Source of the DNA: a virus
Strand: one strand, 5' to 3'
DNA length: 64,000 bases
IMG/VR virus record: IMGVR_UViG_3300027754_000047
Span: 32,001-96,000 of that record
Below the pieces are notes generated by a model. The model had not been told where the DNA came from. It did no database searches and was given only the letters and a program-made list of their open reading frames with translations. The translations under genes and the position numbers were made by a program. This document shows positions 10,065 to 49,236 of this stretch, piece after piece; the first letter of the stretch is position 1; each line of letters opens with the position of its first letter.

Positions 10065-10427
10065 ATGCAAATCTATAATCACTTACGCCCTCAGTTAGTA
10101 GCCAACATTAAACAAGCCTCATTGATGGGTATGGAGAATCCTACGGCAGGCGGAGTACTTGGCGGCTTGGGGGGTGCCGGCCTAGGTGCTGGCTTATTAC
10201 ACCTTTTAGCAGCTGATGATAAGAAGACTTTAATGAACTACTTAATGGCTGCCGGTGGTGGTGGTTTAGCTGGTGCCGGAGTTGGCGTCGGCGCAGGTAA
10301 GCTTAAAGATTCATTTGACTTTGTAGCTAAAGAAAAAGAACAAGGTAACGCTGACGGCGACTCTGGTACTGCTGCTAAACAGGAAACAGATAAAGCTAAT
10401 AAAGAACTAGAAGCAGCTAAAAAGTAA
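10065..10427 (+). CDS. Glycine-zipper protein, putative virion protein
   Basis: AAGGAG SD; NIKQAS motif followed by GGVLGGLGGAGLGAGLL. Confidence 0.55.
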   Translation: MQIYNHLRPQLVANIKQASLMGMENPTAGGVLGGLGGAGLGAGLLHLLAADDKKTLMNYLMAAGGGGLAGAGVGVGAGKLKDSFDFVAKEKEQGNADGDSGTAAKQETDKANKELEAAKK

Positions 10428-10435
10428 ATCCTTTT

Positions 10436-10483
10436 AATAGCTAAAAGAAAACAAGCCCCAAGGTTTTAACCTGGGGCTTGTTT
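10436..10483 (-). terminator. Intrinsic terminator (probably bidirectional) with TTTTAGCTATT tail
   Basis: aaacaagcccca-aggttttaacc-tggggcttgttt hairpin between convergent genes; aatagctaaaa at 10436. Confidence 0.85.
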
Positions 10484-10502
10484 ATTATGTGATTATGGGT
10501 AT

Positions 10503-11960
10503 TCAGTCTCGCAACGCAGCAGGGCTGCGGCGGCGAATCTGAGGCACTTGTTGAACTTCTTCCGGCAAGTTGTACTCATGCGCTGCCACCTCAATGGCCT
10601 GGGCCAAGATAGTAGCAGCCTTTTCTCGCTCCGAGTTATGAGTCCTCGGTGCTCGGTTTACCAGCTTCAGCTGAAGGCGCATAGCCTCGAAGGCCTCCAT
10701 GATGTCCTCTGGCAACACCACGTTGCGGTCTGCTAGTTGAGCAAGAATAGCGGCTGCAACGCCGATCTGCACCACGGTGCTTGGGTTCTGGTGCCCGCAA
10801 GTCTGCAGCTTGTCTAACCAAGTGTTGGTGTCCACTTTGGTGGTCAAATTACAAACTCTACCCAACAAACGCAGGCTAGCTTCTGGAGCTAAAGGCTCCA
10901 TCTCAATCAAGCTATTCATTCTGCCTGGTCGAAGGAATACAGGCAGAATGCGCTCGGTATCGTTGACCGTAAAGATGGTCATCAACGAGCGACCCTTGGT
11001 GCTGACGCCGTCCAGGACGTTCGTCAAGTTGTCTTGGCGAATGGTACGCTCATCGTTCTCGGACTCCATCAAACGATTCACGTCTTCCACTACTAGGATG
11101 GCCGGTTCATACTGCTGAGCCCACTCGTTACCAAACTCAAGATCGCGAGCATCTTTGATGAAGATGCAAGTGATGCCTCGGCTGCTTGCTTCGGCCATTA
11201 CTGCATTTACCAAAGCAGACTTACCGGTACCGTAACCGCCAACCAACATGTGGTTGGATTGAAAACGGACTGCACCTGCTGCGCCCTTCAACACATCTTG
11301 CCGGCGCAAACGCTGCAAGATTTGCGTGTTGATTCGCTTCTCTGTTGCAGGGTTGAAGACCAGGTCTTCGAGGACTCCCTTGCAGTCCTCGTATTTTGCC
11401 ACGTGTCGCGCATGGTTGAAGGCAGTCCCTTCACCTCTACGGTAAGGGAACTCAATTGAAACAATCGTCCCCTTCACCTTAGAGTGAATGCCGGTTGCGA
11501 TGTTTCCTCGCAACGTTGCTTCAAACTGCTCCACAATGCGAGTCAACAGGCCAGGTGCTTTAATGCGCAACCGCAAGTAAGGCTCGTCTGTGTATTCTGC
11601 TTGCTCCAGGCTGGCCTGGATGCTTATGTTGTATTTTCCACCGTCTTCAGCAGAGACGACTTTTAATTCAATCCAACTGCCGATTGGCACTTGCACTGTC
11701 TGACCCTTATTTTGGATAGACAGTTTGCTTGCCCCTGCAGGGACTATCGGAACGCAATCCAACTGGTGGATTGTTGCCCAATAGCTTAGAAGGGCATCTT
11801 CGAAGTAAATGCCCGTCAACTGCACATATGTGTTGACCATTTCTTCTTGGCTGGCCACGTATGCCGCCAATGCTGCTGATGTTGCCTTCAGGCCAAAGCC
11901 TGTTGGCGCCTGAACCCCAATGTGGTTCGGGGTATGCTGCTGAAACTTGACTTCATTCAT
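10503..11960 (-). CDS. AAA+ ATPase (classic AAA clade) with long N-terminal domain
   Basis: Walker A GGYGTGKS, Walker B ILVVED, LTNVLDG, SRH FLRPGRMN. Confidence 0.88.
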   Translation of the reverse strand: MNEVKFQQHTPNHIGVQAPTGFGLKATSAALAAYVASQEEMVNTYVQLTGIYFEDALLSYWATIHQLDCVPIVPAGASKLSIQNKGQTVQVPIGSWIELKVVSAEDGGKYNISIQASLEQAEYTDEPYLRLRIKAPGLLTRIVEQFEATLRGNIATGIHSKVKGTIVSIEFPYRRGEGTAFNHARHVAKYEDCKGVLEDLVFNPATEKRINTQILQRLRRQDVLKGAAGAVRFQSNHMLVGGYGTGKSALVNAVMAEASSRGITCIFIKDARDLEFGNEWAQQYEPAILVVEDVNRLMESENDERTIRQDNLTNVLDGVSTKGRSLMTIFTVNDTERILPVFLRPGRMNSLIEMEPLAPEASLRLLGRVCNLTTKVDTNTWLDKLQTCGHQNPSTVVQIGVAAAILAQLADRNVVLPEDIMEAFEAMRLQLKLVNRAPRTHNSEREKAATILAQAIEVAAHEYNLPEEVQQVPQIRRRSPAALRD

Positions 11961-12011
11961 CTCGGATTTTTCCTCTGAAAAGACATTTTATCAATATCAA
12001 TATGAACCGCC

Positions 12012-12046
12012 TATGTATATTAACCAATATTAGGGGCTAATTTAAC
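12012..12046 (-). promoter_or_regulatory. Phage cassette promoter variant TTAAA-N18-TAATAT
   Basis: Minus strand gttaaattagcccctaatattggttaatatacata aligns with the repeated promoter motif. Confidence 0.55.
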
Positions 12047-12053
12047 AAACATA

Positions 12054-12103
12054 AATAGCTAAAGAAATAGCCGGGACCAAGGGTTTCCCCCTGATCCCGG
12101 CTA
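12054..12103 (-). terminator. Intrinsic terminator with TTTAGCTATT tail
   Basis: tagccggga...tcccggcta hairpin 12068-12103; aatagctaaa at 12054. Confidence 0.8.
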
Positions 12104-12112
12104 CGAAATGAA

Positions 12113-12379
12113 TCATTCAGCACAATGCACTAGCGAAAATGCTAGTGCATATGCAGCTGGCGCTGCCACCGGGGCCCAATAAGCCCTTACTTCGGTTATG
12201 ACATACACCATACTGGATCTCTTTCCATCCCGCAGGTGGTGCCTGTCCAAGATAACCTCATATCGATCATCCAGGATGTCGTCCAACCTGTCTGCTGTCT
12301 TTACCAACAACCCTAGCTTGCAGCAGGGAGACGCGCCCTGGTTGTTACCCACCGCTATGTAGCGGTGTAGTGGCTCCAT
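12113..12379 (-). CDS. Hypothetical protein (start uncertain)
   Basis: ORF fills the space between the lysozyme gene and the terminator. Confidence 0.4.
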   Translation of the reverse strand: MEPLHRYIAVGNNQGASPCCKLGLLVKTADRLDDILDDRYEVILDRHHLRDGKRSSMVYVITEVRAYWAPVAAPAAYALAFSLVHCAE

Positions 12380-12405
12380 CAATAGAAGCGTAGGCGTATC
12401 CGTTG

Positions 12406-12822
12406 TCACGGTGCCTCCAGTGCAGCCTGCACCTTGGCCCAATAACCCAAGGTAGCATTCTTGCGGTGCCCCTTAGGGCCGCCGTTATGCTGCCTTGCCA
12501 GCACTTCCATGCTCGCGTTCTTCGGCGCATAGCGCCGAAGGTAGGCCTTTACCACTTTCGTGGCGTAGGCCTTATCCTTACAATCGGCATACGTGCCGCC
12601 GATTGATTTGTCATACTGGGTCGCGTCAACCCAGTATGCCTTATGGATTTGGTAAGGCCCAATAGCCTTACCTTTGTCTCCGACCGCATTCGCGGGGTCG
12701 GCTTCGCCGCCAGTCTCCACCTGGCAAATGGCCTGGACTAATCGGTCCAGGTCGATGTCACTCACTTGCGCCTTCGCCTGGCTACAAGCCAAGGTAAGGA
12801 CAACCAATAAGATTCGGAGCAT
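12406..12822 (-). CDS. Secreted lysozyme-fold protein, i-type lysozyme/destabilase-like
   Basis: Signal peptide; AICQVETGG...GDKGKAIGPYQIHKAYWVDA...CKDKAYA...ARQHNGGPKG...YWAKV resembles the destabilase family; GGGAG SD. Confidence 0.8.
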   Translation of the reverse strand: MLRILLVVLTLACSQAKAQVSDIDLDRLVQAICQVETGGEADPANAVGDKGKAIGPYQIHKAYWVDATQYDKSIGGTYADCKDKAYATKVVKAYLRRYAPKNASMEVLARQHNGGPKGHRKNATLGYWAKVQAALEAP

Positions 12823-12863
12823 TTCGTTACTCCCTTTCTTGTTTGTTGTTTCCGTGCAAATCC

Positions 12864-13541
12864 CTACGGAACGTCCGTAGGGTTACAAATTTGTTGTTTC
12901 TTTCGCGGGGCGCGAATACGGCGCACGCAACCCTTACGCCATCTAGCAGCAGTTGCCTTGCCGTCAAGGTTAACCCAGCTGTAGCTATTATCTTGCGCTT
13001 GCACTGCTTTACCTACTTCCCGCAGGGCTTCGTTGCTAAGCATGCAAATGTATCCTTTGGACCCGTCGATTCTTACTGCAACTTGTTTTTGCATCAGGTC
13101 CTCAATGTACAAAGCCTCTAACACCCAGCGCTGGTCTGGGTAAAGGTGAGCTTGATCTAACAGCTCTTTCAATTCCTCTTTATGAGGAACCTTTTTGGCT
13201 TGAGGGTCCCAAACGCATTTTGTTTTCATTTCGCTCAGCACCTTAACTGCATCAAAAGACAAAAACTTAGGCCTAGTTCGGTAATGAGTTCCTTGCCTAC
13301 CGTAAGTTTTTCGTATTAGGTCCTTCACGCAAAAGATGCTTTTGCGGGGAGCGAAGCTTAAATCTTTACCCACCCCCATTAGTTGCATGATGGCGTCATG
13401 GGCTGCTGATTCCGCATCCACTAAGGGGTCGTCTACTCGGCCTACTCTTTTAAGGTACTTCCGGCAAAGAAAGCAGCTTATGCGAATAGCCTTTTTGATA
13501 TTAGCCTCGGAATAATCTGGGGCTTCTATTACTGCTTCCAT
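12864..13541 (-). CDS. Sigma70-family-like transcription factor (divergent)
   Basis: Region 2-like DAESAAHDAIMQL..VKDLIRK and region 4 HTH-like LYPDQRWVLEALYIEDLMQKQVAVRIDGSKGYICMLSNEAL. Confidence 0.65.
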   Translation of the reverse strand: MEAVIEAPDYSEANIKKAIRISCFLCRKYLKRVGRVDDPLVDAESAAHDAIMQLMGVGKDLSFAPRKSIFCVKDLIRKTYGRQGTHYRTRPKFLSFDAVKVLSEMKTKCVWDPQAKKVPHKEELKELLDQAHLYPDQRWVLEALYIEDLMQKQVAVRIDGSKGYICMLSNEALREVGKAVQAQDNSYSWVNLDGKATAARWRKGCVRRIRAPRKKQQICNPTDVP

Positions 13542-13714
13542 TTGAGTACCGTTCTAGAGACTATGTACAGTCCTGCTAAAACAGTGCCACAAGTGATTAT
13601 GTAGCGGCCTGTAATTGCGTCGCCTTTTAGGGCTTCGATTACTCCTGCAGCTACGGGAGCTACGGCCACCCAGAACTCTGTAGTCCGAGTGCCTGATTTC
13701 ATAGTTGGGTCCAT
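13529..13714 (-). CDS. Small two-TM membrane protein, holin-like
   Basis: KSGTRTTEFW N-terminal motif followed by two hydrophobic segments. Confidence 0.55.
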   Translation of the reverse strand: MDPTMKSGTRTTEFWVAVAPVAAGVIEALKGDAITGRYIITCGTVLAGLYIVSRTVLKWKQ

Positions 13715-13775
13715 TTGGAGCCTTACCGCGTTGCGGCATTAAGAGTGTATCTTATTGCCTAACTCGGCTATGAAA

Positions 13776-13856
13776 AGACCCCTTGATCCAATTAAGAATC
13801 AAAGGGTCCTTGAGGAGAAAGAAAGGGGCACTTAGGTTTAATCCCAAGTGCCCCCA
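13776..13856 (-). terminator. Two tandem terminator-like hairpins downstream of the tRNA
   Basis: gacccc-ttgat...atcaa-agggtc and gggggcacttagg-tttaat-cccaagtgccccc, each with an A-run on its left (U-tail on minus). Confidence 0.65.
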
Positions 13857-13893
13857 TTGGGGGAAAAGATGCAGTTGCCTTTTTCAAGGTGAA

Positions 13894-13967
13894 TGGACCG
13901 GGTGGGATTCGAACCCACGCCTTATCGATTATGAGTCGACGGCTCTAGACCACTGAGCTACCAGTCC
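13894..13967 (-). tRNA. tRNA with CAT anticodon (Ile2 or elongator Met; not initiator), no encoded CCA
   Basis: GGACTGG TA GCTC AGTGGTCTA GAGC C GTCGA CTCATAA TCGAT AAGGC GTGGG TTCGAAT CCCAC CCGGTCC A cloverleaf; paired G1-C72 and no GGG/CCC anticodon stem. Confidence 0.93.
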
Positions 13968-13976
13968 AAGGTAAGG

Positions 13977-14130
13977 CTTTAACTAAGCTGCTGTTCATGG
14001 AATTCCAGGATTCTTTGGACTTTTAAATCCATAAGGCGTAAATCCCGGTCTTGTCGTAGGTTTTCTCTACGCTCTAGGGCAGCTTAGTTAAAGGGGTCAG
14101 GCTGAGGAGCGCTGTACTCAACTCAGCCTA
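13977..14130 (-). ncRNA. Candidate structured RNA upstream of the tRNA
   Basis: Perfect 15-bp closing stem 13977-13991/14079-14093 with internal hairpins, plus an aggctgag..ctcagcct hairpin; no ORF >=60 aa; promoter motif at ~14159-14188. Confidence 0.5.
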
Positions 14131-14154
14131 ATTCAGTACGATTGTTAGTCGTAT

Positions 14155-14190
14155 ATCATTATAACCCGTTTATGCTAAATTTTTAGCTTT
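14155..14190 (-). promoter_or_regulatory. Promoter CTAAA-N18-TATAAT
   Basis: Minus strand gctaaaaatttagcataaacgggttataatga. Confidence 0.6.
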
Positions 14191-14192
14191 AA

Positions 14193-14414
14193 TTAGTCAG
14201 ATAAATCTTCATCTTCTATTAGCAATTCCAAATCTAATTCACTATTTTTATTTTGTAAATCAGGGAAACTAATGTTGGTACTCGTTTGGCTAGGCTTATT
14301 TGCTAAGTTATTGGAGTAATCAATCTGAGCTTGGGTGTAGTCTGATTGTTTAACGTATGAGGTTGACAGTATTGCCTTGTACGAAATTAGTGTTTCTTTT
14401 TTACGACGACCCAT
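14193..14414 (-). CDS. Hypothetical protein, basic N-terminus and acidic C-terminus
   Basis: 73 aa ORF, AGGTG upstream, promoter motif at 14461-14492. Confidence 0.55.
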   Translation of the reverse strand: MGRRKKETLISYKAILSTSYVKQSDYTQAQIDYSNNLANKPSQTSTNISFPDLQNKNSELDLELLIEDEDLSD

Positions 14415-14460
14415 TTTGCACCTGTTAGCTAAATGAAGAGCTCTAATGAGTTCTTTCTAA

Positions 14461-14492
14461 GTCATTATAACTTATTTTTACCGAATGTTTAG
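14461..14492 (-). promoter_or_regulatory. Promoter CTAAA-N18-TATAAT
   Basis: Minus strand ctaaacattcggtaaaaataagttataatgac. Confidence 0.55.
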
Positions 14493-14496
14493 TGGC

Positions 14497-15156
14497 TTAA
14501 AGTTGCATAGTTTCGACAAAAGGATTGCCATCAATGACTACTCCACAAGCTATAATAGGCTTTTTAAGAAAAGCTGCACCGTATTGCATAGCCCAATGGT
14601 TGCGATCCACTCCGCAACCAATGTTCATACCCCATACTTTAGCTGTTGGCCCTGCTTGATACCAGACTCCACAAGCTGAGTGATAGTGCCCTAATACCGT
14701 AGATTGCATTCGCAACTTGGCTGCATTGAATGCGGGTTGTTGGCCTCCGGCTCCTTCGCCGTGGTAGTAGTAGACTCCGTCGATTTCAACGTTATCTACC
14801 CATTTCCAACTATGAGTGTCGTATAAGGAGTTGAACTCCTTTAAGTAAAGCCTAGGAATTCCTAGTTTAGCGTTTAATCGAAGTACTCTTAGATCATGAT
14901 TACCTACAGTTATGCTTGCTGTAGGGAATGCTTCGTATAGTTGTTTAACTTGCTTACAAGCCAAGTCGTATTCTAATGCTGCTCCAGGATTCTCTGGGTG
15001 CTTATCGTGAAAAGATATGCAATGATGGTCAACAACGTCTCCAATATGTACTACCTTATCTATACGCCAACGTTTAGCAACTGCCTTTAAAAAGGGAATA
15101 TATTTGCGATGCATGGCTGGGGCGTGGGTGTCCCCGATTACTAATACTCTGCTCAT
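14497..15156 (-). CDS. Calcineurin-like metallophosphoesterase
   Basis: GDTH, GDVVD, GNHD, HG and GHYH motifs. Confidence 0.9.
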   Translation of the reverse strand: MSRVLVIGDTHAPAMHRKYIPFLKAVAKRWRIDKVVHIGDVVDHHCISFHDKHPENPGAALEYDLACKQVKQLYEAFPTASITVGNHDLRVLRLNAKLGIPRLYLKEFNSLYDTHSWKWVDNVEIDGVYYYHGEGAGGQQPAFNAAKLRMQSTVLGHYHSACGVWYQAGPTAKVWGMNIGCGVDRNHWAMQYGAAFLKKPIIACGVVIDGNPFVETMQL

Positions 15157-15207
15157 TTAGGCTCCAAAGTAAGTGGATACTGTCAACTTATTGTTAGCTA
15201 AGGGCGC

Positions 15208-15236
15208 AGAGTAAGCAGGTAAGGTACCGGTGTCAA
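15208..15236 (-). promoter_or_regulatory. Sigma70-type promoter TTGACA-N17-TACTCT
   Basis: Minus strand ttgaca ccggtaccttacctgct tactct upstream of the phosphoesterase gene. Confidence 0.55.
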
Positions 15237-15249
15237 GTTTAGGCTATTG

Positions 15250-15286
15250 ATAGCTAAAAGAATGTGTAGGGTGGAACCCCTACACA
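15250..15286 (-). terminator. Intrinsic terminator with TTTTAGCTAT tail
   Basis: tgtgtaggg-tggaac-ccctacaca hairpin; atagctaaaa at 15250. Confidence 0.8.
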
Positions 15287-15342
15287 CTCCCTTTGATTGA
15301 ACCTGTAAACCCGTTAGCAAACAGGTTCAAGTCCAAGCCAGG

Positions 15343-15717
15343 TTATCGCATTAACATAATGCGATCATTAATGATTTTGATCTTGCGCTTGTTAACAAGC
15401 CTTCGTAGGCGTTGGCCGATTTGCTGGCGGCTGAGACCTGCCTCAACTGCCGCCAGGTATATTTTTTGTTTCAGTACTACTCCTTCGGGGTCGCTGAGCT
15501 CACGCACTATCTTTAGCACTCCTGCCTCCAGGGGTTCTCCTTCCTTTGCCTTTTTTGGAGGCTTTGGAGGTGAGAACAAAGACTGCTTGGGCCCATCCAA
15601 TGTGGGGCTAACTTTGATGTCTAGGCTCCAACCGGAGCCGACGGCCGCAGTGTGTAGGGCTTCGGCTAATTGTACAATCTCTTTCAGTCTGGCAAACGGA
15701 CCTTTTATATCTTTCAT
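15343..15717 (-). CDS. Hypothetical protein, possible C-terminal winged helix
   Basis: ATG 15717 avoids overlap with the upstream kinase; GLSRQQIGQRLRRLVNKRKIKI is HTH-like. Confidence 0.5.
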   Translation of the reverse strand: MKDIKGPFARLKEIVQLAEALHTAAVGSGWSLDIKVSPTLDGPKQSLFSPPKPPKKAKEGEPLEAGVLKIVRELSDPEGVVLKQKIYLAAVEAGLSRQQIGQRLRRLVNKRKIKIINDRIMLMR

Positions 15718-15823
15718 AACAACGGGTTTCCTAAAAGCCCTCGGTAGACGCGTACCTTGGGTAAAATGACAACCGCCCTTACACACTACAAGTATGCAAG
15801 GGCGGGGCGTCGAATGTTTGTTT

Positions 15824-16231
15824 TTAACCCACAAAGCGTGGGTCGTGGTGTTCCCAACGGCCAGCCATCTGCTGGACCTTCTCCGCAGGGCAACCGTGGG
15901 TGTTTGACCAGCTGTTTTCACAGTGTACAACGAATACACTGTAGCCATACTTAGCGGCCAAACTAAGGTACGCCTCGTAGTCTCGCCTCACTACTGAGGT
16001 GTTAGCTACGGCCAAGCGGGGCCAATCAGCCCTCATTGCAGTAGTCACTTGCTCTTCGCACCACCGATGAGCTAGACTAAGCTTGGTGTAGTCGAATAGG
16101 TACTCTCCTGTTTCGTTCAGGAAATACTTATCCGCCTCAAAGGCGGGGCACGACAAATCCAGTGAAGCAGCCAAGCTGCTTTTACCTGAACCGGGCAACC
16201 CTCTGATAACGTACAAGATCTTTTGATTCAT
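15824..16231 (-). CDS. P-loop nucleotide kinase-like protein (AAA_33/PNK-type)
   Basis: LYVIRGLPGSGKSSLA, EADKYF, VANTS, HGCP motifs; AAGGAGG SD. Confidence 0.85.
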   Translation of the reverse strand: MNQKILYVIRGLPGSGKSSLAASLDLSCPAFEADKYFLNETGEYLFDYTKLSLAHRWCEEQVTTAMRADWPRLAVANTSVVRRDYEAYLSLAAKYGYSVFVVHCENSWSNTHGCPAEKVQQMAGRWEHHDPRFVG

Positions 16232-16300
16232 TTCTTCCTCCTTTTAGCTGTGCTTTAGGCTTAACGCAAACCTAATTTTTAATGGTAACACAGTTCACAT

Positions 16301-16332
16301 GTTATATTCACACAATAGGTGGGCTATTTTAA
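16301..16332 (-). promoter_or_regulatory. Phage cassette promoter variant TTAAA-N18-GAATAT
   Basis: Minus strand ttaaaatagcccacctattgtgtgaatataac directly after a terminator tail. Confidence 0.55.
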
Positions 16333-16364
16333 TAGCTAAATAAGGACCCCGGTTAGGGGTCCTT
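16331..16364 (-). terminator. Intrinsic terminator with TTTAGCTATT tail
   Basis: aaggacccc-ggtta-ggggtcctt hairpin; aatagctaaa at 16331. Confidence 0.8.
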
Positions 16365-16385
16365 GGGTCTCAAAAGCCCCTGTGT

Positions 16386-16832
16386 TTAGCTACCAGACTG
16401 CACGAAGATCGTTTCTCCTGCAGCTCCCGCTGCCTTTCCTGCAACACCCGCCGTCTTGTCCACCGCCTCCTGAGGAGGAGCTTTCATTCCCTCATCGGCG
16501 GGCCGTCGGTCCCTATTGGCCTGGGACCGGGCCTTGTCGTCCTCTTCAGAATTCTTGGCCTTCTTCCTGTCCATCACTTCGTTCGCCTTGGCTTCCACCA
16601 TTGGGGTGGAAGCAACCAGCATGCCGAGCGCGGCGAAGGCCAACGTCGTGATCGTGGCCATGCCGTTGAAGCCGGCCACCACCATCGAGCGGGTTTCATC
16701 CATGGACCAAGTCCACGGAAATAACCAGCTTTCCCCGCTAGCAGGGACCAAAGCGTCTCCGCCGCCAATGGCAACGAAGAAGAGAATCGACACAACCGCG
16801 TAGGGCATAAAGCCCCAGAAGAACTTCTTCAT
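16386..16832 (-). CDS. Hypothetical membrane protein
   Basis: Two hydrophobic segments, charged C-terminus, GAAAGGA SD, GC-rich codon usage. Confidence 0.7.
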   Translation of the reverse strand: MKKFFWGFMPYAVVSILFFVAIGGGDALVPASGESWLFPWTWSMDETRSMVVAGFNGMATITTLAFAALGMLVASTPMVEAKANEVMDRKKAKNSEEDDKARSQANRDRRPADEGMKAPPQEAVDKTAGVAGKAAGAAGETIFVQSGS

Positions 16833-16916
16833 TCGAAGTTCCTTTCCGGGGTATTACCCCTAGTAGTCGCTTACTTGTAGTCAGGATTACGCACCCAACA
16901 GCAAGTATCGCTACTT

Positions 16917-16954
16917 ATATATATATACCGCAAAAGGGGGTCTATTTTAGTCCC
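16917..16954 (-). promoter_or_regulatory. Phage cassette promoter CTAAAATAGACCCC..GGTATATA
   Basis: Minus strand gggactaaaatagacccccttttgcggtatatatata, near-identical to the copies at 18205 and 18383. Confidence 0.8.
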
Positions 16955-16972
16955 TCAATACTGTCAACCTTT

Positions 16973-17025
16973 AATAGCTAAAAAGAACGATCCTTATGGC
17001 CCCGAAGGGTGGCAAGGATCGTTCT
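16973..17025 (-). terminator. Intrinsic terminator with TTTTTAGCTATT tail
   Basis: agaacgatcctt...aaggatcgttct stem with a cUUCGg-capped inner hairpin on the minus strand. Confidence 0.85.
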
Positions 17026-17477
17026 ATAGCTGTTGCGGTGTTTCTGCAGAAACCTTGACAACAGCTAGTTATTGTTCCGGAACCTCCGGGCATGGCTTAC
17101 TAACACCTCTTCGTCCTGCCGCAACCTACTGATCTTGTAGGTCGCTTTAGTTATCCCCTCGCAAGGGGGGCGGTTTACGAGGGACAACCCAACTCTCGTT
17201 GGATTTCTAGGTAGGCTCTCGTCCCCTAGACATACCCACTCCAGTTTTATTAGAGTAGGCTGTTAATAGGTCCCTCACAGGTATGGGACCAACCTTGACT
17301 AGCCTCCGTTGCCACGGGGCGCTGCTCTTTTGCCGAGCCAGCATTAAAGTCGAACCTAAATGGAGTGTACAGCTCCAGTGCTACCGGGGGTATTTATTCC
17401 GGTAAGCTGCTAACCCACCAGTTAGGTAGGTCATACGGTAGGTACCGTAGGGCCCTATATATTGCTATATAGAGCTT
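16980..17477 (-). ncRNA. Candidate ~500-nt structured non-coding RNA
   Basis: No ORF >=60 aa; bounded by its own promoter (17482-17512) and terminator; about a dozen hairpins; GCAA and GAGA tetraloops and G-U pairs favour the minus strand. Confidence 0.65.
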
Positions 17478-17481
17478 ATGT

Positions 17482-17512
17482 ATTATACCCCAAAAAGGAG
17501 GTTATTTTAGCC
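17482..17512 (-). promoter_or_regulatory. Phage cassette promoter CTAAA-N18-TATAAT
   Basis: Minus strand ggctaaaataacctcctttttggggtataat. Confidence 0.78.
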
Positions 17513-17520
17513 TTACCTTG

Positions 17521-17562
17521 ATACCTAAAAAAAGCCCCCCAACTCCTTGCGGAGTGGGGGGC
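17521..17562 (-). terminator. Intrinsic terminator (GCAA loop) with variant tail TTTTAGGTAT
   Basis: Minus strand gccccccactcc-gcaa-ggagttggggggc followed by a T7 run. Confidence 0.85.
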
Positions 17563-17583
17563 ATCGTCCATGGTGGGGGGCCT

Positions 17584-18111
17584 TTAGCGGCTCCACCACC
17601 ATGCCAACTGATCAGACCATGAAGGATTGGTCAACCGCTGCACTCGCTGCTCGCTCGCAATCTGCTGTGCGATTGCAGCAGAGGTGGCCGATTTGTTTCC
17701 CATCGACGCCCTAACATGGATCGCCGCCGTCCACGCCGGGATGCGGACGTAGTCAATTCCAGCAGCCTGCGCCACCCACGCATCGTGGGTGGTTTGGACC
17801 GTCATGATTGCAGCGACGCCCAAGTCGGGCGTCACCTTCGTCGCCGCTTCTACAGCGGCGCAAGTGGAGGCTCCTGCCTCCACAATTCCTTCTGGGGTGG
17901 TGGTGCACTCCACCTTAAGATCCAGCTGCTTCTGCAGCTGCTGCTCTGCCTCACTCCAAGCTGCCTTGGTCTCCTGGATGGAGACCAGCATGGCTGCGGC
18001 CTTTGCCGCAACCTCCTCCGCCGTCGGCGCCTTAGCCGAAGGTGGAGTCGCTTGGCAAACGCCTCCGATGAAGAAGGCGATTGTACAAACGAGTGTTAGA
18101 AGAGTCTTCAT
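17584..18111 (-). CDS. Hypothetical secreted protein (signal peptide, Ala-rich)
   Basis: MKTLLTLVCTIAFFIGGVCQA signal; AAGGAGG SD; own promoter and terminator. Confidence 0.75.
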   Translation of the reverse strand: MKTLLTLVCTIAFFIGGVCQATPPSAKAPTAEEVAAKAAAMLVSIQETKAAWSEAEQQLQKQLDLKVECTTTPEGIVEAGASTCAAVEAATKVTPDLGVAAIMTVQTTHDAWVAQAAGIDYVRIPAWTAAIHVRASMGNKSATSAAIAQQIASEQRVQRLTNPSWSDQLAWWWSR

Positions 18112-18204
18112 GAGACTCCTCCTTTCCGGGGTATTACCCCTTTAAGCTGTTGTTGACAGTATGAGCGGTTACGCAACCCTCATTATCAGCTACAACAGCC
18201 TTAG

Positions 18205-18239
18205 GTATATATACCTCAAAAAGGGGTCTATTTTAGCCC
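18205..18239 (-). promoter_or_regulatory. Phage cassette promoter (left arm of 35-bp inverted repeat)
   Basis: Exact reverse complement of 18383-18417. Confidence 0.8.
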
Positions 18240-18367
18240 TAAAAAGGCCCTTTTAGGCCCTTTTAGGCCCTTTTAGGCCCTTTTAGGCCCTTTTAGGGCT
18301 ATTGACAGTTTTAGGCCCTTTTAGCCCTAAAAAGCCTCTTTTAGGCCCTTTTAGGCTCTTTTAGGCC
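18240..18367. repeat. Tandem array of the 10-mer TTTTAGGCCC with variants
   Basis: Four perfect consecutive copies at 18251-18290 plus about six further exact or degenerate copies to 18367. Confidence 0.92.
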
Positions 18368-18382
18368 TGTTGACAGTATTAG

Positions 18383-18417
18383 GGGCTAAAATAGACCCCT
18401 TTTTGAGGTATATATAC
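18383..18417 (+). promoter_or_regulatory. Phage cassette promoter (right arm of 35-bp inverted repeat)
   Basis: gggctaaaatagacccctttttgaggtatatatac. Confidence 0.8.
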
Positions 18418-18740
18418 ATATGGCCGTTATAGCTATATATAAGAGCTTATCCATGTCGGAATGGCCTTTATAGCTATAACGAGCCAATATGTAGTAGTAC
18501 GTATTGGCAGTTGATCCCCCTCACCCCTTGCGGGGTGGTGCAGGTCGCTAACCCTAAGGGGGAGGCTATCCGGACAGGTACCTCCTACGGTGGGGCCTTA
18601 ACCCGACCTCCCCCCCGAAGTCTGGGGTCACGGTTGCAATGCGAAACCTCCACATGAAGGTGTGGAACACGGGAATCGCGCTTAAGCCTATTGGAAATAG
18701 GGTGAAGCAAAAACCCCCCTGAAATGGGGGCTTTTTTTTT
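18418..18740 (+). ncRNA. Candidate ~320-nt structured non-coding RNA
   Basis: No ORF >=60 aa; between a promoter and a T9 terminator; long 5' stem cgttatagctata/tatagctataacg; cUACGg loop; ccacat-gaag-gtgtgg and cacccc-ttgc-ggggtg hairpins. Confidence 0.6.
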
Positions 18741-18747
18741 AGCTATT
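18714..18747 (+). terminator. Intrinsic terminator with TTTTAGCTATT tail
   Basis: cccccc-tgaaat-ggggg-c-T9-agctatt. Confidence 0.8.
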
Positions 18748-18765
18748 AAAGGTTGACAGTATTAG

Positions 18766-18800
18766 GGGCTAAAATAAGGCTCCTTTTGAGGTATATATAT
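18766..18800 (+). promoter_or_regulatory. Phage cassette promoter CTAAA-N18-TATATA
   Basis: gggctaaaataaggctccttttgaggtatatatat. Confidence 0.8.
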
Positions 18801-18880
18801 ATGTAGAGGGTTTAGACCTAATTGATGGGTGTTCCATTAATTAGAAACAAACCCTACTACTACTCTTGAAAGGAGTAGCC

Positions 18881-19084
18881 ATGTCAATAGTTTGGCAGCC
18901 GTCCTTACGGCATCCCAAATTCCAGGTCGTAAAAGACCTGGTCTTTGGAATCGTGGGAACAATGGACGGATGGGAAACCTCCTCCATTACTACCACGGAG
19001 CAGGCAGAGGCCCTGCTCCAGATCCCGGGGTGTCCCTTTGAGCAGGAGCTCAAGGAGATCATCAAGAAAGGAGTGAGCCCGTAA
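18881..19084 (+). CDS. Hypothetical protein (67 aa) in its own cassette
   Basis: GAAAGGAG SD before ATG 18881; followed by a terminator. Confidence 0.75.
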   Translation: MSIVWQPSLRHPKFQVVKDLVFGIVGTMDGWETSSITTTEQAEALLQIPGCPFEQELKEIIKKGVSP

Positions 19085-19102
19085 GGGCTTTTTTTAGCTA
19101 TT
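19076..19102 (+). terminator. Intrinsic terminator (GTAA loop) with TTTTAGCTATT tail
   Basis: agccc-gtaa-gggct-T6-agctatt. Confidence 0.8.
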
Positions 19103-19112
19103 AAAGTACCTA

Positions 19113-20984
19113 TTACTGTGGAGGCATTCCGGTTGCTGGCGGAGCCGGTTGCCTAAGTTGGTCTTTACCTTGGTTACCTGCTTGCTGAGTAATCTGATCC
19201 AACATACCCTTGATGACAGCATGTAGGTGAGGGTCTTGGCTCTTAATACCTTCCAAGATCTGCCTACGTTGCGGACTGCCCAATGGAGCCGTAGCCATGA
19301 TTTCGTTAACTCGGCCTTGAGCATCCCCAAAGAAGCTTTCCAAGTCCTTACCTGCTCCTGCAGCCGTAGGCCCAGCTACGCCGTTAATAGGCATTGCTGG
19401 AGCGCCCATACCGCCACCGATATTTGGCCCACCTGGCATACCGCCTGCTCCTGCTTCCTGCCCTGGGGCTCCAATGAAGGCTCCTGGAGGCGCAGCCATA
19501 ATCTGCTCGTTTTCTTCTGCTTTGCGCATGCGTTCCATGTAAGACTTTTCTTCTCGCATCTTGAACTCTTGCTCGCTTTGGCGCTTCTTGAAGGTGTCCT
19601 TCCAATCCAAGCCGAAGAGGGTAAGTACGTCTTGTTCCGATGCGACGCCTTGCATCATCATCTGCAACATCATCATGCGGCGTTCAATGTCATCTGCATG
19701 AGTAGGTCGAGTCAAGTTAACTTCACAAGGCAACCAGTTTAGAATAGCGCTAATTCTGTCAACAATCCAAGTTAAGGCTCGTTGTAAGCCGCCTAGAAAG
19801 ATAGTTTCCCCTGCTTCAAATAAACGAGCAGCAAAAGGGGCTGTTTGAACACTAAGGGTCTTACGGTACAGTTCTACTGGAACGCCTAAGCCGTTTAAGA
19901 AGTCAGCTTGGGCTGCATCTAACAGTTGTGGAGTAACAAAGTTCTTACCTTCACCGCCTAATAGTTGGTAATTAACTGGAGTAGGTAACCATTGCCAACC
20001 AGTGGGATCTTTACGAGCTCTATCAATAGAGCGCATAACCTGAGAGCCGAAGGAGCCAATGTTTACCGACTGCATAAAGTCGCCATTGGCTCCAATAGAT
20101 GCCGGAGTAACCAAGCGAATAGGCAACATATGATCTAAGGCAATAGCTTCGTTATTGCGCTTAAGTATTTGGGCTAGGTATGCATCCCTAAAGCCTGCAA
20201 TTACCGGAGGCAAACCCCATTCACCCATTTTGATGTCGCTAAGGTTGCCAATGGAGATATGGTGCAACATGCCGTCAGCAAACTGAAACAAGCTACTAGC
20301 TCGCACAGCTTGAACAATACCCCATGGAGCTTCTTGTAAGTACTTCTTATTGCCGGCCTGAATCAAGGTTCGGTCTTGACTCGGTACTTCGTAGTAATAC
20401 TCAGGAATACCTCCGTATGGCTGGTTTACGATTCTAATCTGCCGAATTGGCCAACGCTTAATAGTGATCTTATTCTCTTCTAGTGTAGGTCGATCATCTG
20501 GATTAAGCGTTTGAACCTGCTTACCGCAACTAGCGCACTTGTAACTAAACCCAGTGCTTAGACTAAACTTATATTCTACGTTAGCAATAGGCCGAGCTGC
20601 TCCACACTCAGCACAAGTTAAAAAGCGCTTAAATGGAGCTAATACCGAGATACAAGAATTACCGTAGACCTTGATATCCCGGCCAATCAAAAACAACAGA
20701 GTTTTAATCTGTTGTTTTTCTAAGAGGAACTTCTTGTACTCCGCCGCCTTATCTTCATCCTTAGTAATCACGTTAAGGTCGGTGCCGGTAAAGTAAGAAA
20801 CTACGTATTCAATAGCTTGGGCAAAAGTTCTATTGCTGTAATACATAGCCTCCGCCATCTCAAATGATTCGTTTATGTTCGTAGGCATATGCAGGGATGC
20901 ATAGTCTAAGAACGGACTAGGAATACTATCTGAGTGGCTTAAAGCTCGGCGCTTGCTAAAGTCTGGCGTTGAAAAATCTGGCAT
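19113..20984 (-). CDS. Probable portal protein with zinc-ribbon insertion
   Basis: 623 aa; portal-like segments (IGRDIKVYGNSCISV, GEWGLPPV, FLNGLGVPVEL); CAEC..CASC insert; Gln/Gly/Pro-rich tail. Resemblance only. Confidence 0.55.
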   Translation of the reverse strand: MPDFSTPDFSKRRALSHSDSIPSPFLDYASLHMPTNINESFEMAEAMYYSNRTFAQAIEYVVSYFTGTDLNVITKDEDKAAEYKKFLLEKQQIKTLLFLIGRDIKVYGNSCISVLAPFKRFLTCAECGAARPIANVEYKFSLSTGFSYKCASCGKQVQTLNPDDRPTLEENKITIKRWPIRQIRIVNQPYGGIPEYYYEVPSQDRTLIQAGNKKYLQEAPWGIVQAVRASSLFQFADGMLHHISIGNLSDIKMGEWGLPPVIAGFRDAYLAQILKRNNEAIALDHMLPIRLVTPASIGANGDFMQSVNIGSFGSQVMRSIDRARKDPTGWQWLPTPVNYQLLGGEGKNFVTPQLLDAAQADFLNGLGVPVELYRKTLSVQTAPFAARLFEAGETIFLGGLQRALTWIVDRISAILNWLPCEVNLTRPTHADDIERRMMMLQMMMQGVASEQDVLTLFGLDWKDTFKKRQSEQEFKMREEKSYMERMRKAEENEQIMAAPPGAFIGAPGQEAGAGGMPGGPNIGGGMGAPAMPINGVAGPTAAGAGKDLESFFGDAQGRVNEIMATAPLGSPQRRQILEGIKSQDPHLHAVIKGMLDQITQQAGNQGKDQLRQPAPPATGMPPQ

Positions 20985-46392: not shown

Positions 46393-49236
46393 TTACTTCT
46401 TGTACTTAGTTAAATTAGGGTATTTAATTACGTCTGTTTCTGTTAAGGACTCGCCCCAACGAATACAAACTTCTGGATCGATGTCTAAGACCATATTATT
46501 ATTAGGCACCTTGCAACGTTCGCACATAGCAAGTCTAACTGCTTCTAGGGTTTCGTCAACCTGGTTTACCGGGCAAGCTACAAGAATTTGATCGTGTACG
46601 CTCATCAGGATTCTGTATTGTAGGTGGGGCTTTTCGACCTCCCTAATCATATATAAGTTAAGTAGCGCTAAGGACATTAAATCGCCTACGGTACCTTGAA
46701 TAGGTGCGTTCATTGCTTGACGTCTTTGATGAGCCAAGTTCTCTTTATCTGCGGTAGGCTCAAATCTACGTCTACGGCCAAATCCGTTCTCAACGTAGCG
46801 GCGCTCAGTAACATGTTGTTGCTGCTTTACCAACCACTCAGCCAAGTCTGGAAAAGTAGTCTTAAACGCTTGAACTGCAGCTTCTGCTTCTTCTTGCGTT
46901 ACTTCTACTCCTTCCAAGGATACTGCAGATTTAATGGCCGTAGCACCTCTACCGTATGCAATACCGAATGTAATGGTCTTTGCAATGGTGCGGAACTTCG
47001 ACCAATTGTTTTCCTTAAGCCAATCCTTCTTGCCTTTAGTATAGTCTTCAGGTGGCGGACTTAGCTTAAACATCTGCATAGCAACTTCCGAGTGAAAGTC
47101 TGAGCCCTTATCTAACAGCTTAGCCTGCATAGCCGTATCGCCGCTAAGCCAAGCCATAACAAACAGTTCTGCCTGAACCCAGTCGCAATCCACGATGCAC
47201 CAATCTTCCGGCACTGTGAAACAGGAACGAATAGATGGAATTTTAGTGGTATCTTTAAACGCCTTACCTACCAGCTCTTCAGCCGTCTTAGGCAATTGCG
47301 CCATATTGGGGTTGCTATGCCCGTAGCGGCCAGTTTCAACAGTCTGCCTAATACGAGTATGTACTCGGCCGTCACTCCATATCTTTGGCTTAATTCCACC
47401 TTCTAATGTGTAGTTTGTACCATCTTCCGTAGGAGTAAACTCTCCAGTAAAAGTCTTTACAGTTTGGGAAATAGCCGTATATAGCAGCATGGCATTAAGT
47501 AACGGACAATCTTTATGCTCTCCTAACAGCCCCAATAGCACAGATCTATCGGTGGATGGAGTGAGCGCTGCTTCCTTACCTTGCTCCATAGCCTTAGCCC
47601 AATCTGCGTCGTTAGTTGCCTTGATTGGAGTATAGGTGGCTAAGTTGGCTCCCTTAGGTGGTTGAGTTTTCTTAGTCCAACTAAACAAAGCAGCAGCCTT
47701 TTGCGCTGGAGAGTCTGGGTTAAACTCTGGCCAGTTAAGTATAGTGCAAAGCTGTTCGGATAGTTCTACCTTCTTTTCAGAGTACTTTTGGGAAAGCAAT
47801 TCGAGGCGAGGCAAATCCACTAGCATGCCGTTCATTTCCAACTCTAAGATTGGCATAGTAGCCGGCATTACTATAGCTTCAAACAGCTCCTTGATACGCT
47901 TATGTTCAGGCAAGTTCATCTCTGCCATTTGCAACAAAGCAATTCTAAATGTTGCATCTGCGTCCTTGGCGGAATAAGGCAACAAGATATCGTCAGGAAT
48001 TCCGCCGTAGCTGAACTGCTCTACGTCGTACTTATTAGCCTTAATCCAATCGTTCAGTTCTAGTTCGTAACGTCCCAGGTCGGTATGTCTGGCTACGTAT
48101 ACTTCCAGGCCCTGCGCCCAATTCTCGTTTAACAAGTGGCCGGCTAATGCTGTGTCCCAGCCATTAAGAGTTGGACCGGCAACATTGACTCCGTTATGCA
48201 CCAACCAAGGCAAGTCCGCTCTAATAAAGTGGCCAATAAGCTTGGTCTTTCCGTTCTCAATGAATGCCTTGAGTTTAGCCCAAGTCTCCTTAGCGTTTAA
48301 ACCCAATTCGGTAAACTGCTTACCCGGGCGACTAAAGATTACAACTAAGGCTTCTCCTGGAGCCCAGCTCAATTGCATGCAACGTAAGTACCCGTCAAGG
48401 TGATTGCCGTCGCCCCACTCGCAATCCAAAGCAAGCCAACCAGTATAGGTTGCTGTGATCTCTGCCAGCTTAACGTCTAGTTGGGCTAGGTTATCGCAGT
48501 AAACATAATTAGTTGGCAGCACTTGCCCTGAGGCCTTACTACCCCCTAATTCATTTACCAGTCTAGTCATATCGAGTGCAATAACTTCTCGCATCTCAGG
48601 CATATGTAGTATAGAACTGAAATCTGGGATAGCAGCAATGTTGACTCCGTAGTCATTGTCTGCTGCTGCAACCGTTCTATTCTTGTACTGCTCGTAGGTA
48701 GCTTTAGAGCCAAATACCGCCTTTAGGGTTTTAGCCCCCAAAAGTATTACAAGATCTGGCTTAACTAACTCTAACTCCTTAAGGAAGTGTTCTTTAAACT
48801 CTGCCACTTCTTCCTTAGGAATTGCTGTCTTCTTACCATCGATGAAATACTTACAATAGGTGGTGTAGTAGACGTCATTAACGTAGGCGTCAAAGCCGGT
48901 GCTTTCACATAGGGTTTTGAACTCATCAACCCACTGTCCTCGGAATAAGCTGCGTTCGTCGTGCTCAGACTTGTTGGGCCAGCAACCTACAATCATTATC
49001 TTGTGCGGAGTAGGGCCTAAGGCTCCATACCAGCGACCAGCATTGACTTGCCCGTTGCCAAGTGAAATACCGGGTAACGTTATAACGGTTTGTAAGGCTC
49101 CGGTTTCCCCTTTATTAATTAAGGTTAAGGGGGCCTCCAGTAACGTACGCTTAGCCCATTCTGGAGTGTAGTTGTATTGTTCTGCGTACAACTCGCATAT
49201 AGTTTTTCTAATCTCTGCTACTGCTTTAGGTGCCAT
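46393..49236 (-). CDS. polA: Family A DNA polymerase with N-terminal UDG-like domain and 3'-5' exonuclease
   Basis: UDG-like IMIVGCWP..E..LFRG..VYYT..ELELVKPDLVILLG; exonuclease LDCE, HFIRADL, YSAKDAD; TGRYGHSNPNMAQLP; motif A DWVQAE, motif B RTIAKTITFGIAYG, motif C VHDQ. Confidence 0.93.
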   Translation of the reverse strand: MAPKAVAEIRKTICELYAEQYNYTPEWAKRTLLEAPLTLINKGETGALQTVITLPGISLGNGQVNAGRWYGALGPTPHKIMIVGCWPNKSEHDERSLFRGQWVDEFKTLCESTGFDAYVNDVYYTTYCKYFIDGKKTAIPKEEVAEFKEHFLKELELVKPDLVILLGAKTLKAVFGSKATYEQYKNRTVAAADNDYGVNIAAIPDFSSILHMPEMREVIALDMTRLVNELGGSKASGQVLPTNYVYCDNLAQLDVKLAEITATYTGWLALDCEWGDGNHLDGYLRCMQLSWAPGEALVVIFSRPGKQFTELGLNAKETWAKLKAFIENGKTKLIGHFIRADLPWLVHNGVNVAGPTLNGWDTALAGHLLNENWAQGLEVYVARHTDLGRYELELNDWIKANKYDVEQFSYGGIPDDILLPYSAKDADATFRIALLQMAEMNLPEHKRIKELFEAIVMPATMPILELEMNGMLVDLPRLELLSQKYSEKKVELSEQLCTILNWPEFNPDSPAQKAAALFSWTKKTQPPKGANLATYTPIKATNDADWAKAMEQGKEAALTPSTDRSVLLGLLGEHKDCPLLNAMLLYTAISQTVKTFTGEFTPTEDGTNYTLEGGIKPKIWSDGRVHTRIRQTVETGRYGHSNPNMAQLPKTAEELVGKAFKDTTKIPSIRSCFTVPEDWCIVDCDWVQAELFVMAWLSGDTAMQAKLLDKGSDFHSEVAMQMFKLSPPPEDYTKGKKDWLKENNWSKFRTIAKTITFGIAYGRGATAIKSAVSLEGVEVTQEEAEAAVQAFKTTFPDLAEWLVKQQQHVTERRYVENGFGRRRRFEPTADKENLAHQRRQAMNAPIQGTVGDLMSLALLNLYMIREVEKPHLQYRILMSVHDQILVACPVNQVDETLEAVRLAMCERCKVPNNNMVLDIDPEVCIRWGESLTETDVIKYPNLTKYKK

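Follow-up and report, generated by a model that had tools for sequence, protein, structure and literature searches.

A short conserved tail behind unrelated terminator hairpins at unit borders in a hyperplastic region of an uncultured freshwater phage

In T4-type phages, promoter-early stem-loop cassettes (PeSLs) combine a stem-loop terminator, an AT-rich stretch, and an early promoter; they are described as flanking ORFans (open reading frames, or ORFs, without homologs) in hyperplastic regions and as mediating shuffling (Arbiol et al. 2010, PMC2839356; Comeau et al. 2014, PMC4122927). A signature of another kind is reported for phage phiKZ, which has its own RNA polymerases and carries a conserved hairpin followed by TTAT in 61 terminators genome-wide (Putzeys et al. 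2024, PMC10914365). Here we describe a short sequence, the tail, that follows terminator hairpins at positions 10436-19102 of a 64,000-nt stretch of phage DNA (the window; positions 32,001-96,000 of the IMG/VR virus record IMGVR_UViG_3300027754_000047). The tail is made up of a T-run and AG(C/G/A)TAT(YAAA), and the promoter box discussed with it, CTAAAA(A)TAG, is a separate element. The tail is tied to the terminator side, stands at the borders of units that differ between related phages, and is conserved across the phage lineage. We conclude that terminator and promoter form a composite junction in this hyperplastic region and that the tail belongs to its terminator side; this, the most important point, goes beyond a preliminary description of this DNA.

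The preliminary description had listed seven copies of the tail, correctly to within 1-2 nt, and had proposed that the motif be counted against expectation. In this count, the exact sequence TTTAGCTAT occurred seven times in the window, compared with a mean of 1.67 (sd 1.26, maximum 6) in dinucleotide-preserving shuffles, and none of 100 shuffles reached seven. All of the copies lie within 10437-19101, five on the minus strand (10437-10445, 12055-12063, 15250-15258, 16332-16340, and 16974-16982) and two on the plus strand (18738-18746 and 19093-19101), and each abuts the T-run of a GC-rich hairpin. The 55 nt upstream of the seven tails have folding energies of -17.2 to -34.9 kcal/mol, and the hairpins, with their T3-T9 runs, lie 3' of ORFs or ORF-free units and have the anatomy of intrinsic terminators. 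The stems differ completely, as had been claimed; between 13 and 21 of about 35 aligned positions are alike in pairwise comparisons, and the hairpins are therefore unrelated. Over the whole record there are 10 copies of TTTAGCTAT on both strands, among 4,324 T-run ends; the 7 copies in the window are preceded by a hairpin, and the remaining 3 are not. Two variant copies that had been pointed out at 14426 and 17521 are real, the latter behind a hairpin of -27 kcal/mol and the former, at 14425-14433, behind one of -8 kcal/mol.

The record is a single contig of 129,472 bp (45% G+C) that was judged 73% complete, and its source is an uncultured freshwater (lake) phage of a lineage of about 175 kb without a close cultured relative. 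A megablast of the region against phages gave no match, and tblastn searches with the portal protein and PolA gave a best identity of 28%. The product of the portal gene (19113-20984, minus strand) is 26-28% identical to portals of Vibrio and Salmonella phages, and the record also codes for a family A DNA polymerase fused to uracil-DNA glycosylase and exonuclease domains, a ribonucleotide reductase, an SbcC-like ATPase, and a RecA-like protein. In the polymerase ORF (window 46393-49236, minus strand), the uracil-DNA glycosylase superfamily domain is N-terminal. A portal query of viral contigs recovered 27 related loci (protein identity 69-81%), two of which are complete genomes (175 and 183 kb, with terminal repeats in one of them), and a phosphoesterase query of metagenome_contigs recovered one locus, L150. 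A search for closer strains, in which polymorphism of the units could be seen, found none. The relatives have diverged by ∼30% at the DNA level (about 70% nucleotide identity in the portal gene), and at this distance crossover points cannot be placed at the base level.

Downstream of the portal gene in these relatives, the same order of elements was found, namely a hairpin, a T-run, AG(C/G/A)TAT, and, usually after 10-13 nt, a CTAAAA(A)TAG box with a TATATA-like -10 element. In an unbiased tally of the hexamers that follow 272 unique contexts of a hairpin (folding energy of -12 kcal/mol or lower) and T4 in this record and the 27 related loci, AGCTAT was found 17 times and AGGTAT 9 times, and the next hexamer was found 5 times. 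This tally, the shuffles, and the count of T-run ends reject chance as the source of the recurrence. When 30 sequences (the 27 loci, L030, L150, and this record) were searched for a T-run and AGNTA[TAG] behind a hairpin, 45 unique cases were found in 14 of them, with T-runs of 3-9 nt. The third base of the tail is C in 29 of these cases, G in 11, and A in 5, and positions 7-10 lean to Y-A-A-A (35, 28, 30, and 25 of the 45, respectively). L150, the relative found among metagenome contigs, holds three further copies, and the most distant, GC-rich clade (L023) has a T-run and AGCCCT in place of the tail. After the lysozyme operon, four lineages have AGCTAT or AGATAT tails with unrelated hairpins and unrelated downstream sequence. 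The matches listed in a gapped tail-to-box pattern scan of viral_contigs were mostly unrelated contigs; among those listed with a preceding hairpin, about half were known contigs of the clade or one added contig (L030/L129), and the rest were without a phage-type promoter.

Both sides of the junction were counted. Among 35 unique box promoters, 21 are preceded by a hairpin with a T-run and the tail, none by the tail without a hairpin, and 9 by neither (Fisher p = 2.8e-5); the other five were scored as a hairpin without a tail, which on inspection was promoter or repeat sequence. The nine promoters with neither element show that the promoter does not need the tail. From the side of the tail, 40 unique copies (a count that leaves out the one at 19093) were examined over the 45 nt downstream, where the box is found in 20, TTGAC only in 6, and neither in 14. 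The junction at the phosphoesterase gene was aligned from 10 loci, which represent 7 distinct sequences with upstream hairpins of five or more kinds. Six of the seven retain the T-run and AG(C/G)TAT, with a TTGACA-N17-TAnnnT promoter following after 5 to 32 nt, and the most distant (L023) clade has TTAGCTGT there instead of the tail. In L014, an identical hairpin and tail are joined to two different downstream sequences. Based on the promoters without a tail, the tails without a promoter, and these varied junctions, the tail travels with the T-run.

The likeness to PeSLs lies first in the composite joint of a terminator, an A/T-rich stretch, and an early promoter, which is recognized here by sequence only (at 21 of the 35 box promoters and at one TTGACA-N17-TAnnnT junction). 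The setting is also like that of PeSLs: the region is hyperplastic, the tails stand beside ORFans, and the units that they delimit vary among related phages. This region, between the portal gene and the convergent genes, contains seven ORFs without a homolog in 29 related loci (an AAA ATPase, orf_12113, orf_13560, orf_15343, orf_16386, orf_17584, and orf_18881); the AAA ATPase was also without a relative in viral_contigs. Common to the relatives are the phosphoesterase, the small ORF behind its gene, tRNA-Met, and the lysozyme, and the kinase-like gene is found in one group only. As with PeSLs, the joints are better kept than the genes. A 107-nt module of terminator, tail, and promoter is 88% identical between L017 and L008, the portal genes of which are 68% identical, and the genes that flank this module differ. 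Whole modules, hairpin included, repeat in the relatives L014, L015, and L017, and within L014 and L015 they are duplicated next to paralogous genes. At L014 14520-16480 and L015 11060-13255, consecutive cassettes with identical terminators contain several paralogous genes that have ∼117-bp internal repeats. A 23-mer common to two joints was absent from viral_contigs and metagenome_contigs. Contig breaks of the DNA run beside some joints (e.g. 12057/12064) were set aside, being no evidence at 4-5x depth.

This locus differs from PeSLs in other respects. The source phage is not T4-like, as judged by its family A polymerase and by its portal. The conservation of a whole motif of about 100 bp, stem-loop included, is not found in the window, where repetition is limited to the tail (9-13 nt) and the promoter (about 35-50 nt); most of the promoters have the phage-specific CTAAAATAG box instead of a TTGACA -35 element, and the tail also stands without any promoter. 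Mini-circles and crossover points are features of PeSLs, whereas the cassettes here are predicted from sequence, with indirect evidence of activity from RNA contigs that end close to predicted starts and from one highly covered unit. The locus resembles phiKZ in that a sequence signature marks intrinsic terminators phage-wide and takes in bases 3' of the stem (PMC10914365). Unlike in phiKZ, the hairpins vary and the conserved part comes behind the T-run; the tail is regional in its distribution, and the search for a phage RNA polymerase found none.

We propose, with roughly even confidence, that PeSL-like regulatory cassettes make up this hyperplastic early region and that the tail is their conserved junction box. 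Each unit would consist of a promoter, a transcribed part, and an intrinsic terminator. The promoter would be either the CTAAAA(A)TAG box near -35 together with a TATATA-like -10 element or a plain TTGACA-N17-TAnnnT promoter, the transcribed part would be a gene (in many cases an ORFan) or an RNA without an ORF, and the terminator would have its own idiosyncratic hairpin and a U-tract template running directly into the tail. The tail would correspond to the AT-rich joint of T4-type PeSLs. Transcription from the upstream unit would halt at the hairpin and U-tract; the A/T-rich tail would lie where the RNA is released and, ahead of a promoter, would at about -42 to -60 be a fixed upstream flank for re-initiation. 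The shared joint, that is, the tail with or without the promoter, would provide homology for joining, duplicating, and exchanging units between phages via general recombination, and promoterless copies, such as those at both ends of the array, would be the terminator halves of joints.

The recurrence of the tail itself has a limit. Strong terminator-like hairpins without a tail occur in the record, for example at genome positions 20097(-), 26855(-), 75511(+), 87795(-), and 102906(-), and three more lie inside the region (window about 15773-15805, 13824-13855, and about 13773); the tail is therefore no general property of the terminators of this phage. Several observations weigh against the proposal of PeSL-like cassettes. 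At one unit border, where the kinase-like gene meets orf_15343, the terminator lacks the tail. At an orthologous late-region terminator ∼900 nt upstream of the portal gene, the tail drifts among relatives (AGCTAT, AACTAT, ATGAAT, ACCAAT, and ACCCCT). The 14 of 40 tails with neither box nor TTGAC within 45 nt, 3 of which stand behind doubtful hairpins, count here as well, since a role as upstream flank leaves their retention unexplained, as does the spacing of the junctions, in which the tail starts 11-12 nt before the TTGACA hexamer as opposed to 15-19 nt before the phage-type box. Furthermore, the tail alone (6-11 nt and the T-run) is short for homologous recombination, and exchange at the tail is read from differences in unit content between relatives, with crossovers unseen.

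There is a small but real chance that the tail is instead a signal coupled to termination, one that would be read at or just after RNA release by the host RNA polymerase or a factor riding on it and would make termination or polymerase release efficient between tightly packed units. Signals in the non-template strand, such as ops/RfaH, TTNTTT/NusG, and sigma-dependent pauses, would be analogous. Such a role would be consistent with the constant position of the tail directly after the T-run in the 45 unique cases, with its presence before a box promoter, a sigma70-like promoter, a start codon, or the end of a convergent gene alike and at both ends of the array, and with its absence from the nine promoters that have no terminator call upstream. 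The tails after the lysozyme operon, kept in four lineages despite unrelated hairpins and downstream sequence, also argue for it, and the phage-wide terminator motif reported for phiKZ is a precedent (PMC10914365). It is difficult to reconcile with the strong tail-less hairpins elsewhere in the record and the three inside the region, and the search for a phage RNA polymerase (PF00940) found none, a weak negative. To our knowledge, there is no case of a bacterial polymerase that needs a specific hexamer after the U-tract. Stated most strongly, the T-run and AGNTAT would be a new terminator-distal signal, a specific sequence of the DNA or its non-template strand located where the RNA is released. 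The host polymerase or an early phage factor bound to it would read this sequence, and that factor would decide between release of the polymerase, its recycling onto a promoter at a fixed distance downstream, and read-through. A sequence-specific layer for insulating and timing early units would then be added to hairpin/U-tract termination; we consider this version unlikely.

It is rather more doubtful that the tail is purely an upstream promoter element, in which the T-run and AGCTATTAAA would serve as an UP-like or bent A/T-rich booster and the promoterless copies would be decaying relics. A/T-rich stretches upstream of bacterial promoters are familiar as UP elements and phased A-tracts, and the tail resembles these in being an A/T-rich stretch at about -40 to -60 with spacings clustered ∼one helical turn apart. 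The box or TTGAC follows 26 of the 40 unique tails (20 and 6, respectively); the distance from the A of the tail to TTGACA is 11-12 nt in six cases, and the distances to the phage-type box cluster at 5-6, 15-19, and 27-29 nt. In the distant GC-rich clade, with its changed tail AGCCCT, the spacings are 17 and 27. The AT-rich stretch of PeSLs likewise lies upstream of the -35 element (PMC2839356). The tail is missing, however, from 14 of the 35 box promoters and differs in this from UP elements, as it does at the 14 promoterless tails, which include the full 11-nt tail at the array end at 10437; the copy at the other array end, 19093, is likewise promoterless. In addition, the distance to TTGACA at the one orthologous junction of the phosphoesterase gene ranges from 5 to 32 nt.

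Another reading takes the box as the true -10 element (TAAAAT) and the tail as an activator box at -30. Middle promoters of T4 have an activator box at -30, and the 10-13-nt spacing found here would fit that geometry. This reading was set aside on the grounds that RNA contigs end downstream of TATATA and not ∼30 nt farther upstream and that tail-less promoters exist.

A role of the tail as a binding site for a phage-encoded DNA-binding regulator is quite improbable. The model for such a site would be the stoperators of cluster A mycobacteriophages, which are orientation-dependent, and the regulator would switch off the early units or set their timing. The motif would suit such a site in being short, partly palindromic (TAGCTA), intergenic, always oriented with transcription, and concentrated in an early-type region, and its tolerant third base is a feature of many protein sites. 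The sole helix-turn-helix-like match in the region is weak (Sigma70_r4, E = 6e-4) and not conserved in relatives, a roadblock directly behind a terminator is without obvious use, and with no integrase match there is nothing that points to a lysogenic repressor system.

Besides a protein-binding site, the preliminary description had suggested a termination signal for a phage RNA polymerase and a recombination core. The first of these is unsupported as it was put forward; T7-type RNA polymerase (Pfam PF00940) was not matched in this record or in either of the two complete relatives, a weak negative in that the control genomes cannot register this family, and the promoters of the region have host-type -10 elements, one of them being a plain TTGACA-N17-TAnnnT promoter, alongside the many tail-less terminators. 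Sigma region 2 was also sought and not found. The recombination core survives in a loose sense, as a shared junction where gene units join or exchange, and in that sense fits best of the three readings; as the site of a dedicated recombinase it does not. Tyrosine integrase (PF00589) was matched in none of the three records, with control matches in 14 of 14 genomes, and serine recombinase (PF00239) in none of the three, with control matches in 12 of 14. With no match to any of these three families, both the phage-polymerase signal and the dedicated-recombinase site are therefore unsupported. Integron attC sites are also structured elements at the 3' end of a cassette, with a variable middle and a short conserved core, and the units described here share these three features. 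They differ in that no integrase was found, the cassettes carry their own promoters, and the GC-rich stems with U-tracts are ordinary terminator anatomy. An extended palindrome, with the tail pairing with sequence 5' of the hairpin, was not seen in the copies read, and an integration host factor site (WATCAANNNNTTR) was dismissed, the second half of the site not being kept in the tail copies listed.

The region is transcribed outward from a tandem array of the decamer AGGCCCTTTT (12.5 copies, 18245-18367). At its center (18202-18420), this array lies between divergent box promoters, neither of which has a hairpin or tail upstream; the box of the leftward promoter starts at 18236, and the rightward promoter has TTGACA at 18370-18375, a box from 18386, and a -10 element at 18409-18414. 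A repeated promoter-like element, (TTGACAGTATTA)GGGGCTAAAATAGACCCCTTTTTGAGGTATATATAC, flanks the array both ways, and the array itself could be a regulator array or an origin. Leftward, an ORFan, an ORF-free unit, a second ORFan, the kinase-like gene, and a small ORF are followed by a conserved block (metallophosphoesterase, small ORF, tRNA-Met, a weak sigma-region-4 protein, and a destabilase-type lysozyme) and last by the AAA ATPase. Rightward, there is a second ORF-free unit and then a 67-aa ORF. The tails mark the 3' ends of units and both outer ends of the region, where they are squeezed between a hairpin and the stop codon of a convergent gene. Among known RNA families, only tRNA-Met was above threshold in the region.

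On the minus strand, the tail nearest to the center is the variant at 17482-17560, in which the hairpin is followed by T7 and AGGTATCAAGG (tail at about 17521-17533); behind it are a box, CTAAAATAA, from 17510 and a -10 element, TATAAT, at 17487-17482, upstream of an abundant ORF-free RNA. At 16918-17026, a hairpin (about 16984-17025), T5, and the tail AGCTATTAAAGG (16974-16982) are followed by TTGACAGTATT, the box CTAAAATAG (16950-16942), and a TATATA -10 element, upstream of the ORFan at 16832-16386. The tail AGCTATTAAAATAG in the junction at 16295-16365 (hairpin about 16342-16364, TTT) overlaps the promoter box (TTAAAATAGCC) of the kinase-like gene (16231-15824). At 15208-15290, a hairpin (about 15262-15290), TTTT, and the tail AGCTATCAATAG (15250-15258) precede a sigma70-like promoter (TTGACA at 15236-15231, 17 nt, and TACTCT at 15213-15208) of the conserved metallophosphoesterase gene at 15156-14497. 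The weak variant TTTAGCTAA (14425-14460, tail at 14425-14433), the hairpin of which is imperfect, precedes the small conserved ORF at 14414-14193, with 11 nt between it and the start codon. The terminator at 12055-12104 (hairpin 12067-12104, 17 pairs, TTTCTTT) ends in the tail AGCTATTTATG, with a degenerate box promoter behind it, upstream of the AAA ATPase gene (11960-10503). The terminator at 10437-10483 (hairpin 10449-10483) closes the leftward array on its outer side, and its tail, AGCTATTAAAAGG, faces the stop codon of a convergent plus-strand gene (10065-10427) with no promoter behind.

On the plus strand, the junction at 18716-18799 has a hairpin at 18716-18730, T9, and the tail AGCTATTAAAGG at 18738-18746, followed by TTGACA (18753-18758), a box from 18769, and TATATA (18792-18797), upstream of the 67-aa ORFan. 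The rightward array ends with the terminator at 19075-19104 (hairpin 19075-19090, T7), the tail of which, AGCTATTAAAG, abuts the stop codon of the convergent portal gene, again with no promoter behind.

RNA from three lake metatranscriptomes of three studies was available as contigs, from which 3' ends at the tails are unreadable. The ORF-free unit at 17079-17476 (minus strand), behind the promoter at 17482-17514, had depths of 305, 47, and 47 compared with 3-15 for the rest of the region, and a DNA run over the region had a flat depth of about 4.5; DNA runs from lakes contain 30-97% of the region. In two of the RNA runs, contigs end at 17093/17094, ∼60-100 nt before the terminator, one of them with adapter sequence. 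We consider this unit a candidate abundant phage noncoding RNA of about 380 nt; it folds much better than shuffled sequences (z = -4.78) and has no match to an Rfam family. Position 18191, just past the leftward TATATA (-10) element, is where contigs from two studies end. These contig ends and the high depth of the 17079-17476 unit suggest that the box promoters are active and that the box lies near -35. The second ORF-free unit (18420-18735, plus strand), also behind a box promoter, has two copies of the palindrome TTATAGCTATA near its 5' end. There was zero RNA cover of 18427-18727 in the three runs, which carries no weight, and the DNA run has an insertion variant at 18535.

Other features of the region and its relatives were noted. 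A 225-aa protein encoded at window 12864-13541 (minus strand) gave the Sigma70 region 4 match, which is below the Pfam cut-off, and shows hardly any conservation among relatives; it is a possible transcription factor for the box promoters. Behind many of the box promoters in relatives there is a conserved leader of ∼75 nt, with a GGATCTATAGGTATTCC...TAGATCC stem and then AAGAGGAAACA and a start codon (L008 12480-12590 and 13135-13240; L017 13255-13346; also in L003, L012, L014, L015, and L030). This leader is 87-88% identical between phages with portal genes that are 68% identical, and it contains AGGTAT, the same hexamer as a tail variant. In the distant GC-rich clade (L023 16640-17485 and L027 5724-6569), two halves of a tRNA-Met homolog lie ∼770 bp apart, which suggests an insertion in the tRNA gene, possibly an intron.

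A tail that is kept while hairpins and downstream sequences change is a compact handle with which to locate unit borders in the genomes of metagenomic phages, to ask whether the bases just after the U-tract matter for termination or re-initiation, and to track gene exchange between lake phages, although it will be of modest practical use as long as neither a host nor an in vitro system is at hand. If the proposal of PeSL-like cassettes is true, all that is left of the conserved terminator-side part in this lineage is a short box joined to the U-tract. Early regions built of cassettes with composite terminator-promoter joints would then not be peculiar to T4-type phages but would also be found in large freshwater phages of a lineage that is unrelated and uncultured.

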